DNA of 9,372 nt. Origin: a virus. Shown in pieces: positions 3,534 to 8,454 of the stretch; within the stretch, counting starts at the first letter, position 1; each line of letters begins with the position of its first letter. Under the pieces are notes generated by a model. That model saw only the letters and a list, made by a program, of their open reading frames with translations. It was not told the DNA's origin and ran no database searches. The stretch lies in the UHGV virus genome UHGV-1330501; one strand, given 5' to 3'. The position numbers were made by a program, and so were the translations under genes.

Positions 3534-4825
3534 TCACCCCCTTTGCGAAGCAATGAAGTTAAAGAAGTAAAGACATACCAGAACGTAAGGCAATAAAAAA
3601 CCCATGAAAGAACATCTTTAATAGTCAGTAATTTATCGCAACCAATATCAATCTGATAAACCTCTCCGGGAAAAATAATAAAATCAGAGCAGCCGTTACC
3701 ATTGGGTAAATTAGGCAGCATAGCACCTTTATTTAAAAATGCTTCCCATAAAGCACCGTGAGAATCCTTTTCAATTCCCAATTCAGAATCAGCTAAAGTA
3801 GAAGCGCCATCTAATTCAGAGTCGCCCTTTCCATAACGAGAATCACCACCTGAAGGGTCAGCAAAACGGCCAGCCCCCCGCGTAAGATTGTTAATGGAAT
3901 CGTCAAGACGATTTATATTATTCCTGGTTTGTTCATCGGCATTTTTTTTATCATCTGATGAAGTGTCTTTCTCCGTTAATTTATCATGAATATCGCTGGC
4001 TATTTTGGGTGAAGCACCTTCGATCGCAGACTGAATATCACCTTTAGAAAGACTGGAACCACTAGAGCCACCGCCAGAACTACCGCCACCGGACTCACCA
4101 CCGCCAGACTCACCACCACCGGACTCACCACCACCGGACTCACCACCACCGGACTCACCACCGCCGGACTCACCACCGCCGGACTCACCACCGCCAGACT
4201 CACCACCACCATTTTGGGGGGTTGAGGGTTTATCAGAGGGGTCAGCTACAGCACCTGTAGGCTTCCATGTTGCAGCGCAAACAGTACCATCACCCTGACA
4301 AACAATGACACCAGTAGCCTCATATTCACAGCCGTTATAGTAGATATAGCGACCACCATCATATGAATCAACATTATTAAATACACCTTCTTCTGGCGGC
4401 TTCGCTTCACAAATTTCTTCTGGTGTCGGGTCAGTAGGTTTTTCATCAGGAACAGAACGCTGAATATTACCAACAATATAAGCCGTTAAAGACCAATATT
4501 TATCCTTCTGCCCTGGTGAATCGCTGTAAGTACAATCGCCAGTAAAAACAAGACGGAATTCAGAATCAGGCCAGATACCCTCATAAGTTGGTTTAATCCG
4601 AGTAAATACACTCTGAGCACTGGATTTAGCACCCTGACAAGCGGAGGCCTGCATAGCAGCATCAATATAGTAAACCGTTATCTTAGAGCCATCCTGATTG
4701 GTTATTTGCTTACTTTCAGCATAGGCAGAACTTTGATAAGTGGATTTAGTAATGCTTTCCCATGACTCAGCATGTGAAAAAGGAGAAATGAGGACAGCGG
4801 AAAGAATTAATATTTTCCTTCTCAT
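3530..4825 (-). CDS. III: Filamentous phage gene III protein (pIII), minor coat / adsorption protein with Cys-containing N-terminal domains, Gly-rich (GGGES)n linker and C-terminal membrane anchor.
   Basis: Position after gene VIII and its terminator; signal-peptide-like start [19 protein letters not shown] chosen over the longer ORF to 4969, which would overlap gene VIII; Gly-rich linker repeats. Confidence 0.8.
4091..4210 (-). repeat. Tandem array of eight 15-bp units (minus-strand sense CGGTGGTGGTGAGTC and variants) encoding (GGGES)n in the pIII linker, with degenerate copies extending to about 4063.
   Basis: Direct reading of the repeated gactcaccacc(a/g)cc(g/a) units in the plus strand. 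Confidence 0.9.
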
Positions 4826-5114: not shown

Positions 5115-5133
5115 AGGAATAACTCCATTAAGG

Positions 5134-5229
5134 TTACATTAATCGGTCAGAAAATGATTTAAATGAACCGACCGCATAGAAAAGGGCAAAACCAAAGGTA
5201 TAAGCCCCGAAGAAATAAACGATATACAT
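5134..5229 (-). CDS. IX: Putative gene IX protein (pIX), 31-aa hydrophobic minor coat protein (MYIVYFFGAYTFGFALFYAVGSFKSFSDRLM).
   Basis: Small ORF whose ATG overlaps the gene VII stop (TAATG); size, hydrophobicity and position match Ff gene IX. Confidence 0.6.
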   Translation of the reverse strand: MYIVYFFGAYTFGFALFYAVGSFKSFSDRLM

Positions 5230-5315
5230 TAACGAAAGACCCCCGCAGTAATCGCGCCGAGGCCAAAAGAAATAACGATGCCAGACGCTATCAAAATTTG
5301 AATAACATCGTCCAT
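5229..5315 (-). CDS. VII: Putative gene VII protein (pVII), 28-aa hydrophobic minor coat protein (MDDVIQILIASGIVISFGLGAITAGVFR).
   Basis: ATG two nt after the gene V-position stop; composition resembles M13 pVII (MEQVADFDTIYQAMIQISVVLCFALGIIAGGQR). Not in the ORF track because of its size. Confidence 0.6.
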   Translation of the reverse strand: MDDVIQILIASGIVISFGLGAITAGVFR

Positions 5316-5317
5316 AT

Positions 5318-5635
5318 TTAACCTTTGATCTCTGCGATGCCACCATCGGAAGCAACATTATAAGTTACACCTTCCCTACCCTCCATTGACCACGCACGGA
5401 CATAGACAGGAATTTGAACTAATTTCCCAATGAAAGCATTCGCCTGGTTCATTAGACCTGCGTTAACGAGAGCCTGAGAAACTCGAATAATAATTTGATC
5501 CTGCTTTGTACCACCAAAACCATCAGGTATTTCAAGGCCAATACCAATTTCATTATAATAGCCCTGACCATTAACTTTATTACGTTGGCGGGCTCCCAAC
5601 ATTTTACCCTTAACGAAAAGACCATAATTAGACAT
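5318..5635 (-). CDS. Protein in the gene V position (105 aa); putative ssDNA-binding protein by synteny only.
   Basis: ATG at 5635 with AAGGAAAG SD, 11 nt after the gene II stop. The sequence does not obviously resemble M13 gVp as I recall it. Confidence 0.5.
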   Translation of the reverse strand: MSNYGLFVKGKMLGARQRNKVNGQGYYNEIGIGLEIPDGFGGTKQDQIIIRVSQALVNAGLMNQANAFIGKLVQIPVYVRAWSMEGREGVTYNVASDGGIAEIKG

Positions 5636-5646
5636 ATTACTTTCCT

Positions 5647-5961
5647 TTAATGCCAGCTACTGGCGTGCGAAATACGGTTGTAATCGAAAATAAAACCTTT
5701 CTCATAAATCCATAAGGGGATTTCCGCTGGCTTGGCTTCCAGCGTTCTTATTAGCGGAACAACGTTATTAGAGTCTGGTGAATCACAATAGAAATTAATA
5801 TCGATACCGAACGAAAGCAATTCTCTTCTATGGCGATAAAAAGTGTTATGAGGTAACATTTCTTTCATGTTAGCCCCTTGTTTCCAAAGTAAATAAGTTG
5901 ACTGTATTTTTCTTGGCAGTTTCGTTATTTTTTCATCACTTAAAATAGCATTCTGATTCAT
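5647..5961 (-). CDS. X: Putative gene X protein (pX): in-frame internal start within gene II (MNQNAILSDE..., about 104 aa).
   Basis: Internal ATG at 5961 preceded by GGGAG SD about 8 nt upstream; analogous to Ff pX, the C-terminal third of pII. An alternative internal ATG at 6009 lacks a clear SD. Confidence 0.4.
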   Translation of the reverse strand: MNQNAILSDEKITKLPRKIQSTYLLWKQGANMKEMLPHNTFYRHRRELLSFGIDINFYCDSPDSNNVVPLIRTLEAKPAEIPLWIYEKGFIFDYNRISHASSWH

Positions 5962-6699
5962 TTCTATTCTCCCTACATATTCAGAGAATAATTGACGTGG
6001 TGTTTTCATATTCCAGTTAGCGCCAAGCGTTAAATTTAAATCAATAAGCTCAGTTGTTCTTAATGTTAATTCAATACGTAATTTATCTTTCGTCCAGTCC
6101 AGTAACCCGGCTCGTACAAACTCTTCGGCTATCTGGTGCCCTTTTTTACCAGAAACGTGTTCATCATATTTTGAATAAAATTTCAGACTCCATCGACGGG
6201 AGTTTTTACCTAAATAAACTGTACCGCCTTTCCCACATGCGCGACCATGGCGTGTTTTAGCTTTAAATTCGGCGGCATAAAGCCATGATCTGACATTTTC
6301 CAGCGTAGATAATGAATACATGTAATTAATGTCAATACGTGAAATTTTATACTGACCTGCCATAACGGCTTTATAAGACGCTAAATCATGAGGAATATTC
6401 AATAAGGATAAAATCCTGGCATAGACCGTCAACATGAGCCCTTGTATATCATCCGACCCAACAACAGAATGCCCCTGCAGAAACTTGGAAGGATTACCAT
6501 CAATGTACAAATGTGTCGCTTTACCTTCGCCATTAGATCCTATCGATCGTACTTTCATCGTTGCTTCATGCGAGCCGCGAACAGTCAGTCGCTTAACGGT
6601 TTCCCACTCAATTGCACCGTCAGCATCAACGCTGACAACACTCCCCGCCGGAAGCGGTTTGTGTGTGCAAGGGAAAATCCCGGTAAGCCAATCGATCAC
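5647..6699 (-). CDS. II: Filamentous phage gene II protein (pII), rolling-circle replication initiator. Start placed at GTG 6699 (protein would begin MIDWLTG...); the ORF is open upstream to GTG 6741.
   Basis: Large ORF at the head of the minus-strand gene order; GAGGA SD 8 nt upstream of GTG 6699 and resemblance of MIDW... to the M13 pII N-terminus MIDMLVL. Confidence 0.8.
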   Translation of the reverse strand: MIDWLTGIFPCTHKPLPAGSVVSVDADGAIEWETVKRLTVRGSHEATMKVRSIGSNGEGKATHLYIDGNPSKFLQGHSVVGSDDIQGLMLTVYARILSLLNIPHDLASYKAVMAGQYKISRIDINYMYSLSTLENVRSWLYAAEFKAKTRHGRACGKGGTVYLGKNSRRWSLKFYSKYDEHVSGKKGHQIAEEFVRAGLLDWTKDKLRIELTLRTTELIDLNLTLGANWNMKTPRQLFSEYVGRIEMNQNAILSDEKITKLPRKIQSTYLLWKQGANMKEMLPHNTFYRHRRELLSFGIDINFYCDSPDSNNVVPLIRTLEAKPAEIPLWIYEKGFIFDYNRISHASSWH

Positions 6700-6868
6700 G
6701 AATAAATCCTCAAAATTGCAAAAATGACGACTTACTAACACATGAGTTCAGTAGTTCATTAGTGTTTAAACATTACACCAGTGAGCTAGTGAGTTCAAGA
6801 GGCTTGGATGATATGAGTTCATGAGCATGTATACTCACTTCAAATATTGCATTGAACGAGCGTAAAAA
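6700..6868. promoter_or_regulatory. Divergent intergenic control region between gene II (minus) and the plus-strand accessory operon, with three direct copies of TGAGTTCA (6743..6750, 6790..6797, 6814..6821); candidate operators, promoters and/or plus-strand origin.
   Basis: Direct repeats read from the sequence; location between divergently oriented genes. The first copy lies upstream of the preferred gene II start at 6699. Confidence 0.45.
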
Positions 6869-7051
6869 ATGGCAAAGCGCACGACTTATAACGTGACGGA
6901 AGAAAGAAAAATGAAACTAGAACGACTGGCTATAAATGCCAGTGTAAAACTAGGAAAAACAATTACATGGACAGAGATTTTAGGTTATCTGATTGATAAC
7001 TACTCTAAAGATGCAGCAGAAGATCTCATGTCTGCCAAACAAAAGGATTAA
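6869..7051 (+). CDS. Small basic protein (60 aa), candidate transcriptional regulator (possibly ribbon-helix-helix-like) read divergently from gene II.
   Basis: ATG at 6869 and stop TAA at 7049..7051; a short N-terminal stretch (TTYNVT) followed by charged helical sequence. Function inferred from position and size only. Confidence 0.5.
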   Translation: MAKRTTYNVTEERKMKLERLAINASVKLGKTITWTEILGYLIDNYSKDAAEDLMSAKQKD

Positions 7052-7068
7052 GTACCACGAATGGTACA

Positions 7069-7107
7069 AACGTGCAGTATTACCTACACTGCACGTTCTT
7101 TATTGTG
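7069..7107 (+). terminator. Hairpin (10-bp stem AACGTGCAGT / ACTGCACGTT, 9-nt loop) followed by CTTTATTGTG; candidate intrinsic terminator or attenuator between the regulator and the membrane-protein gene.
   Basis: Perfect inverted repeat plus T-rich tail read directly from the sequence. Confidence 0.45.
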
Positions 7108-7139
7108 CGGATTTTGAACAGCAACAAAGGATCAAAAGG

Positions 7140-7562
7140 ATGAGTAGAAATAACGAAACAAGCGGCGTTGAACTGGTTGTTGTAGGCGTATTTGCTTTCT
7201 GTCTGGCAGTTGTTGCCTGGCTAATGAAAACTTTCGATGTTGAATGGCAAACAGCACTGGAAACTGCGCCTGGCCTGATAGTCTGGCTGCTTGTTGTCGG
7301 TGCGGGGATCTTTTTCGGGATCAAAATGGAAACTGGCCTTATTCGCTGGGGTGCTCCACTGGCGATCGCCCTTCTGATTCCGGTATTCAAGCCAATTCTT
7401 AAGGAAGCTGCCGGAGTTCGTGAAACGGGTGGGCTGGTTTTCGATGATATGGTTTCGTGGTATGGAACTGGCTGGGGAATGTCTCTGATGTTCTTCGGGA
7501 TTCTTATTGTCGGATATGGCCTGCTTTATTGGTGGCACAGAAGAAATTCATATTACTGGTAA
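7140..7562 (+). CDS. Hypothetical integral membrane protein (140 aa, about four hydrophobic segments).
   Basis: Internal ATG at 7140 with AAGGA upstream; four hydrophobic stretches. The longer ORF from 6993 overlaps the regulator gene and the hairpin and is judged an artefact. Confidence 0.6.
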   Translation: MSRNNETSGVELVVVGVFAFCLAVVAWLMKTFDVEWQTALETAPGLIVWLLVVGAGIFFGIKMETGLIRWGAPLAIALLIPVFKPILKEAAGVRETGGLVFDDMVSWYGTGWGMSLMFFGILIVGYGLLYWWHRRNSYYW

Positions 7563-8345: not shown

Positions 8346-8385
8346 ATTGGTTCGCACAATGACGTTATGCTAAAGAGGCCGCTGC

Positions 8386-8422
8386 GGGATTCGATTTTCG
8401 CAGCGGCCTTTTCAACATAACG
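8386..8422 (+). terminator. Intrinsic terminator: 11-bp GC-rich stem (AGGCCGCTGCG / CGCAGCGGCCT), 12-nt loop, then TTTT.
   Basis: Perfect inverted repeat 8386..8396 / 8409..8419 followed by a T-tract, 40 nt after the 159-aa gene stop. Confidence 0.75.
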
Positions 8423-8454
8423 AGTCGTACATTATGCGCACCAAAATTATAGAG
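8400..8454. repeat. Right copy of the 55-bp direct repeat, carrying the dif-like element (XerC arm TTATGCGCACC at 8442..8452); putative right attachment site of the prophage.
   Basis: Exact identity with 1..55; overlaps the loop and 3-prime half of the terminator. Confidence 0.85.

Follow-up and report, generated by a model that had tools for sequence, protein, structure and literature searches.

The window, by which we mean the whole 9,372-nucleotide stretch of the viral genome UHGV-1330501 that was analysed, is a filamentous prophage of the CUS-1/YpfPhi type found at dif in E. coli. A complete filamentous-phage gene set lies on its minus strand. Upstream of gene II, on the opposite strand, there is a gene for a small regulator, followed directly by two hairpins. 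The features to which we refer below are:

5647-6699, minus strand: gene II (pII, with gene X nested in it), I2-2 type; Pfam matches to Phage_CRI (8.8e-70) and G2P_X_C (2.1e-29)
Minus strand: gene V, If1-type
Minus strand: gene III, with an If1-type pilus-binding domain
Minus strand: gene I, Zot family
Minus strand: gene IV, secretin
6869-7051, plus strand: 60-aa regulator, a YPO2273/RstR-like homologue, predicted ribbon-helix-helix (RHH) protein with the N-terminal strand KRTTYNVT
7052-7067 and 7069-7097, minus strand: two hairpins directly after the stop codon of the regulator gene

The window gene II is 56% identical to gene II of phage I2-2. By megablast the element was found in E. coli chromosomes at 98-99.7% identity, for example in strain UM146, and the chromosomal neighbours of the prophage are hipA/hipB, tam and yneE. 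Of 5426 complete E. coli genomes, 48 contain the control region between gene II and the regulator gene, and tandem copies are frequent among them. When the phage collection was searched at the DNA level, the whole window retrieved only a 190-bp match in gene IV and the control region retrieved nothing.

An exact direct repeat of 55 bp (1-55, identical to 8390-8444) bounds a phage unit of 8389 bp. This repeat carries a dif-like XerC-arm sequence (reverse complement GGTGCGCATAATG), and a second dif-like stretch (8350-8375) lies about 45 bp from it and is oriented the other way. A search of the window for the E. coli dif site itself gave no exact or nearly exact match, and dif-like arms are all that it contains. 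The DNA past 8444 is outside the UM146 prophage and probably accounts for the many plasmid matches of the window. Within gene III (4090-4187, minus strand) TGAGTCCG is repeated six times, mostly at 15-bp intervals, and presumably they encode the repetitive linker of the attachment protein. The genome of E. coli EC5502 (NZ_CP092647.1) contains 15-17 copies of the element together with a regulator variant in which helix A is scrambled (P0069).

Octamer repeats and predicted promoters of the control region

The gap between gene II and the regulator gene comprises 169 bp (6700-6868). In the RefSeq annotation of the identical prophage in E. coli UM146 gene II starts at the position equivalent to 6699 (a GTG preceded by GAGGA) and not at 6741, so that all three copies of the octamer TGAGTTCA found here on the plus strand (6743-6750, 6790-6797 and 6814-6821) are intergenic. 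A preliminary description of this DNA had already reported these three repeats, their location in the gap between gene II and the 60-aa gene and the ATGAGTTCA context that surrounds the first and the third copy, and all of this was borne out. The related motifs that it mentioned, GTGAGC (6781) and ATGAGC (6821), also exist, and they correspond to degenerate units, each the partner of a perfect TGAGTTCA at a distance of exactly 8 bp.

The octamer is a near-palindrome (TGA-GT-TCA) that appears four times in the whole window against 0.36 copies expected, a total that none of 200 dinucleotide shuffles reached. After block shuffling, three copies inside 80 bp were never obtained (0/3000) and two copies only in 3/3000. 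The fourth exact copy is located at 226-233 on the minus strand, inside ORF 92-325, and a further stretch containing ACTC (GAAACTCATTGAACTCAATG) lies 9 bp from it; this copy may be due to chance, given the approximately 0.36 expected per window, or may be an extra binding site. Octamer matches with up to two mismatches are not enriched in the window (90 vs 92 expected), and for this reason degenerate units have been weighed only by their 8-bp register and their conservation. The units and predicted promoters of the region are:

6743-6758: predicted operator site 1, tandem 8-bp units TGAGTTCA (perfect) and GTAGTTCA (6/8)
6770-6798, minus strand: predicted gene II promoter, -35 TTGAAC (6798-6793), 17-nt spacer, -10 TAATGT (6775-6770)
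6782-6797: predicted operator site 2, units TGAGCTAG (5/8) and TGAGTTCA (perfect)
6798-6813: linker units AGAGGCTT and GGATGATA, in phase, tying sites 2 and 3 in 8-bp register
6814-6829: predicted operator site 3, units TGAGTTCA (perfect) and TGAGCATG (5/8)
6830-6835, plus strand: predicted -10 of the regulator promoter, TATACT, abutting site 3
6830-6837: seventh in-phase unit TATACTCA, 6/8 to the inverted box, including the -10 TATACT

From 6782 to 6837 seven units follow each other in a single 8-bp register (TGAGCTAG TGAGTTCA AGAGGCTT GGATGATA TGAGTTCA TGAGCATG TATACTCA), although the degenerate partner units match at only 5-6 of the 8 positions and could be an over-reading. Site 2 covers the -35 hexamer and the spacer of the predicted gene II promoter, with the -35 embedded in the perfect box and the partner unit filling the spacer. 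The call of this promoter rests on cross-locus conservation, the geometry TTGAAC-17-TAnnnT being present in 10/10 loci with different spacer sequences; in a consensus promoter scan it fell below the threshold and was not reported. With the gene II transcript predicted to start near 6763 (minus strand), site 1 would occupy approximately +6 to +21. The regulator transcript would start near 6842 (plus strand). On the other side, site 3 occupies the spacer directly upstream of the -10 hexamer of the regulator gene, which reads TATACT, TATAAT, TAGAAT or TAAGAT in the different loci, and the -35 region of this promoter is a weak match. The boxes are thus placed where a repressor acting on both predicted promoters would be expected.

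The search of the whole window against Rfam gave no RNA family match. There is an imperfect direct repeat of 23 nt (78% identity) between the gene II leader (6712-6734) and the start of the regulator gene (6866-6888), with ACGACTTA in both copies, that may be a product of chance or the vestige of a duplication. In addition, an AT-rich palindrome (TAGTGTTTAAACATTA, 6760-6775) overlaps the predicted gene II -10. It is not conserved in the other loci of the 10-locus alignment described below (A3), and a host factor, for instance SlyA/RovA, could bind there.

Conservation of the boxes in homologous loci

Homologous loci were gathered through the regulator protein, and the upstream replication gene was typed in each of them. 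The search with the regulator alignment A2 provided four loci in species-representative genomes and 13 in viral contigs, the latter mostly identical. The regulators of the loci compared are 59-100% identical to that of the window and share the N-terminal strand KR[T/A/M]TYNVT. Their replication genes belong to three types:

I2-2-type pII: the window, L016-L018 and L020-L030
If1-type pII: L011-L015 and L032-L036, 61-85% identical to If1 gene II
Rep_trans (PF02486) initiator: L019 and L031

Compared by BLASTP with the pII of the window, the If1-type pII gave non-significant patches only (best E 0.009) and the Rep_trans initiator showed no significant similarity. All the loci with the strand KR[T/A/M]TYNVT have TGAGTTCA or its inverse TGAACTCA at equal offsets from the regulator ATG, and every locus with TGAGTTCA boxes comes from the Enterobacterales. 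In L011 and L012 the boxes are even separated by the same 47 and 24 bp as in the window. In the alignment of 10 loci (A3) it is at the boxes that invariant columns are found, the intervening DNA being variable. The columns of site 1 are invariant or nearly so, except that in some loci the central GT is replaced by AC; TGAGTTCAA in site 2 makes up nine consecutive invariant columns, and AAGAGG in the linker is kept in 9/10 loci. The replacement of GT by AC, found at sites 1 and 3 of several loci, amounts to an inverted box with the register unchanged. At site 3 the inverted TGAACTCA occupies the identical position in L014 and L033, and this site is degenerate in L019 and L031. The C-terminus of the regulator is frameshifted in the Providencia locus L013 (P0071 vs P0070).

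The region upstream of gene II in I2-2 contains no TGAGTTCA. Therefore, the boxes do not co-vary with the initiator lineage: they are identical beside three lineages, kept together with the regulator, and missing in I2-2, which indicates that they belong to the regulator and not to pII.

A hairpin element that follows the initiator

The two hairpins found after the regulator gene fold on the viral (minus) strand with -15.8 kcal/mol (z -5.1). The second hairpin with its flanks (7068-7098) is AAACGTGCAGTATTACCTACACTGCACGTTC, identical in L017 and L018, and differs at only about two positions from the equivalent stretch of I2-2 (L002, ~2667-2700), a phage that otherwise has no alignable DNA here. 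If1 and all the If1-type loci have another conserved hairpin element, AAAGTTCGGGTGTCACAGAACCCCGAACCGCTTCGCG, at that place, and the Rep_trans loci have neither of the two. The element at 7068-7098 co-varies with the pII lineage, and since it tracks the initiator while the boxes track the regulator, it is a better origin candidate than the boxes. We consider it a candidate for the viral-strand origin or for the region recognized or nicked by pII. The order in CTXphi is ig-1, rstR, ig-2, rstA, and the arrangement here of putative origin, regulator, control region and rep gene would run parallel to it.

The regulator protein

The 60-aa protein belongs to PHROG 2503. Searched against Pfam up to E 10, the protein and 11 homologues matched no family, including the RHH families. 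Its AlphaFold model shows an extended N-terminal stretch and then helices at 11-28, 34-44 and 47-55, which fits the order of the RHH fold, an N-terminal beta-strand and then two alpha-helices. A profile search against the PDB placed ParG (1p94) first, with E 0.014 (0.076 when a 50-member profile was used), and TTHA0139 second, with E 0.15. The hhalign comparison with ParG extended over the whole RHH domain (probability 76-77%, E 2e-5) and paired KRTTYNVT with the ParG strand KRVNVNFD. Positions 2, 4 and 6 of the RHH strand are those that touch bases (PMC3413123), and in KRTTYNVT they are R, T and N, polar as the RHH rule expects. In the alignments A1 and A4 the strand is variable and helix A (RK.KLER.AI) and helix B (WTD..NYLIDNY) are kept. 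We assign the regulator to the RHH-like proteins (Arc/MetJ/CopG/ParG superfamily) with moderate confidence, and the architecture of the sites appears to be of the ParG/MetJ type. Furthermore, the regulator is 40.7% identical, over 95% of the query, to the CTXphi 'environmental RstR' and 42.4% identical to the RstR-like protein of VAI1. Our literature search found no paper on these operators or on the fold of YPO2273.

An 8-bp periodicity in the wider family

Among 1.84 billion proteins the regulator family has 76 cluster representatives (E <=1e-3). The distant homologues (36-58% identity) come from If1, Dulem viruses 52 and 53, VAI1, the CTXphi with 'environmental RstR' (GQ466611), D_HF5_61 and Vibrio phage 10N, and all of them present the same succession of a rep gene, a gap of 130-170 bp and the regulator gene. 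The regulator diverges from the initiator gene in the window, UM146, Dulem 52/53, VAI1, GQ466611, D_HF5_61, 10N and L011-L036. The N-terminal strand differs among the distant homologues, and so does the short repeat found in the gap (AATGAAYA; GCATGC/ACGCAT; GTGAGCA; CATAC; CATGTAT). When the 4-mer autocorrelation was computed over 11 intergenic regions, a peak appeared at lag 8 (64 matches vs 11 expected, z ~12) with a harmonic at lag 16 (z ~5), and the periodicity of 8-bp units extends to Vibrio and saliva-metagenome members whose motifs are unrelated. The regulator strand of If1, KRTTMAIV, is accompanied by the repeat TAAACACTTATGC, and that of I2-2, VRTTASIT, by repeats of the ACGTGTATAC type. 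Both are E. coli phages that differ in strand and repeats, which indicates that the motif is tied to the strand rather than to the host.

The regulator homologues of these two phages are unannotated. In If1 (L001) the gene is found at 5310-5122 on the minus strand, its product being 58% identical. An IS200/IS605 element located between this gene and gene II splits the control region (locus 5119-7316, with Y1_Tnp at 5388-5831 and an OrfB_IS605/TnpB annotated as 'ORF348'). The N-terminus of If1 gene II (ATG at 7317) is in a frame different from that of the annotated ORF320. In I2-2 (L002) the homologue runs from ~2918 to 2717 on the minus strand, in what is described as 'intergenic region'. It reads MKKPVRTTASITTEKKKNLSDTAIRISTSTGVQVTWTDS and then continues as LNYVIENY... 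in another frame, with a one-base frameshift at an A run; either the gene is truly inactivated or the record carries a sequencing error from the 1990s.

A predicted operator array and its alternatives

We consider it probable, at roughly 80%, that an RHH repressor blocks the gene II promoter and regulates its own gene from three operator sites, in a switch like that of RstR, and that the strong units of these sites are the TGAGTTCA octamers. Repressor binding, its cooperativity and the direction of the regulation are deduced from the sequence, and would operate as follows. Repressor dimers would bind the 8-bp units, with the near-palindromic core TGA-GT/AC-TCA, in either orientation, and because the centre-to-centre layout is fixed at 8 bp adjacent dimers could bind cooperatively. 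The array at 6782-6837 would cover both back-to-back core promoters, with site 2 on the -35 and spacer of gene II and site 3 on the spacer that abuts the -10 of the repressor's own gene. A second array, at 6743-6758, would sit just downstream of the predicted start of gene II transcription. Occupancy of these positions would turn gene II off, so that rolling-circle replication and the phage operon downstream would be shut off as well, and it would also make the repressor regulate itself. The system would be the functional equivalent of RstR on ig-2 of CTXphi and would explain the maintenance of the prophage and a partial immunity to superinfection. A 4-bp core ACTC/GAGT, like that of ParG, seems less likely, since an inverted box would move such a core by 2 bp. 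Inversions keep the octamer in register, so that a centred core AGTT/AACT fits better than ACTC, and it is probably the one recognized.

The preliminary description had proposed that the repeats were either operator sites or an origin recognized by the replication initiator. The first proposal has gained strength, with boxes that are inherited together with the regulator, overlap conserved divergent promoters and are organized in 8-bp units of RHH type. The second has not fared well. It would make the octamers iteron-like pII recognition sites within the viral-strand origin, similar to the nick-site repeats of Ff, in whose origin pII-binding repeats adjoin the nick site. The octamers are indeed directly upstream of gene II and short repeats are often bound by rolling-circle initiators. 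However, the same boxes are found beside If1-type pII and Rep_trans initiators, neither with significant BLASTP similarity to the pII of the window, and I2-2, with a pII 56% identical, does not have TGAGTTCA upstream of gene II. The element that follows the initiator is instead the one at 7068-7098, common to the window, L017, L018 and I2-2 and replaced in the If1-type loci, and we find a role of the octamers as pII sites hardly credible. It also seems very unlikely that the boxes are sites for a host transcription factor, for example a regulator of the RovA/SlyA type. Typical RovA/SlyA sites are AT-rich and the boxes are not, and the E. coli phages If1 and I2-2 differ in strand and repeat, while the 8-bp periodicity is common to Vibrio and saliva-metagenome members with unrelated motifs. 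What speaks for a host factor is that all the loci with TGAGTTCA boxes are from Enterobacterales and that in Y. pestis, according to the 2014 YpfPhi review (PMC4266046), RovA binds upstream of YPO2274 and the genes YPO2274-2279 are derepressed in a rovA mutant. A host factor may well act additionally, elsewhere in the control region.

A different possibility is that the regulator does bind the boxes and is mainly an activator or a switch, turning on its own promoter when few of the sites are filled and repressing gene II only once most of them are. The weak -35 of the regulator promoter would suit such a role, and RHH proteins such as AmrZ are able both to activate and to repress (PMC3325190). 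Nevertheless, the position of site 3 within the promoter spacer, abutting the -10, and the inclusion of the -10 itself in the seventh unit are typical of repression and not of activation, and we hold an activator or a switch to be very unlikely. We therefore retain the repressor with three operator sites as the preferred reading.

Comparison with known systems

ParG (plasmid TP228, with the O_F operator and the parH centromere) is a small RHH protein like the regulator and its best sequence match among solved structures. It binds degenerate 4-bp ACTC boxes with invariable 4-bp AT-rich spacers, in direct or inverted orientation, and represses a promoter, the spacing of the boxes being set by contacts of the helical scaffold (PMC3413123). 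The targets of ParG and those predicted for the regulator are alike, i.e. arrays of short degenerate boxes spaced by 8 bp, in either orientation, over a promoter. The reverse complement of the box, TGAACTCA, includes the ACTC core of ParG, and both strands have R and N at the base-contacting positions 2 and 6. However, the regulator has no ParA/ParF partner and no partition role, lacks the long flexible N-terminal tail of ParG and has an extra C-terminal helix. The unit here is a full 8-bp near-palindrome, and the sequence similarity is marginal (E 0.014 to 0.076).

In CTXphi, likewise, a small repressor gene diverges from the initiator gene across a gap of ~130-170 bp (RstR and ig-2). Specificity is allelic, one 'environmental' RstR allele being a true homologue of the regulator, and both CTXphi and this type of prophage integrate at dif. 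RstR(ET) is a larger helix-turn-helix protein. The two systems differ in the replication protein, RstA in CTXphi and of pII type here, and in that the operators described here are predictions. RstR alleles repress specifically their cognate ig-2 promoters (PMC11509585), and a partial superinfection immunity has been reported for YpfPhi (PMC4266046). With the met-boxes of MetJ and the heptads of the omega-repressor (pSM19035) the units differ in sequence, and the proteins show no detectable sequence relationship with the regulator. MetJ also needs a corepressor. The origin of the Ff phages (f1/M13) has short repeats in the intergenic region upstream of gene II too, but in the window it is the hairpin at 7068-7098, and not the repeats, that goes with the pII lineage. 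Phage immunity modules in which an RHH repressor acts on tandem boxes are well known, and the operators predicted here would be an ordinary set of this kind, of which our literature search found no description.

Implications for filamentous phages

For CUS-1 and YpfPhi, which as prophages are associated with virulence in extraintestinal E. coli and Yersinia pestis, the present analysis provides a predicted map of operators and promoters. It shows three sites built of 8-bp units and one putative promoter each for gene II and the regulator, and a candidate for the origin is given separately. On a broader scale, the regulator and its boxes could be a portable immunity cassette belonging to a small ParG-like RHH family for which we found neither a Pfam model nor a description. 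Strand and box core would change together while the helical scaffold holds the 8-bp spacing, and the cassette would have been swapped among at least three replication modules, each with its own origin hairpin. We regard this generalization as evenly balanced between true and false. If it holds, If1 and I2-2, classical E. coli phages that do not integrate, would descend from temperate ancestors and have become derepressed, If1 by the IS200/IS605 element that parts the regulator from the control region and I2-2 by the shifted frame of its regulator. The pairing of strands and boxes across the family offers a natural set of orthogonal small repressors, and it is evidence that the immunity and replication modules of filamentous phages recombine independently.
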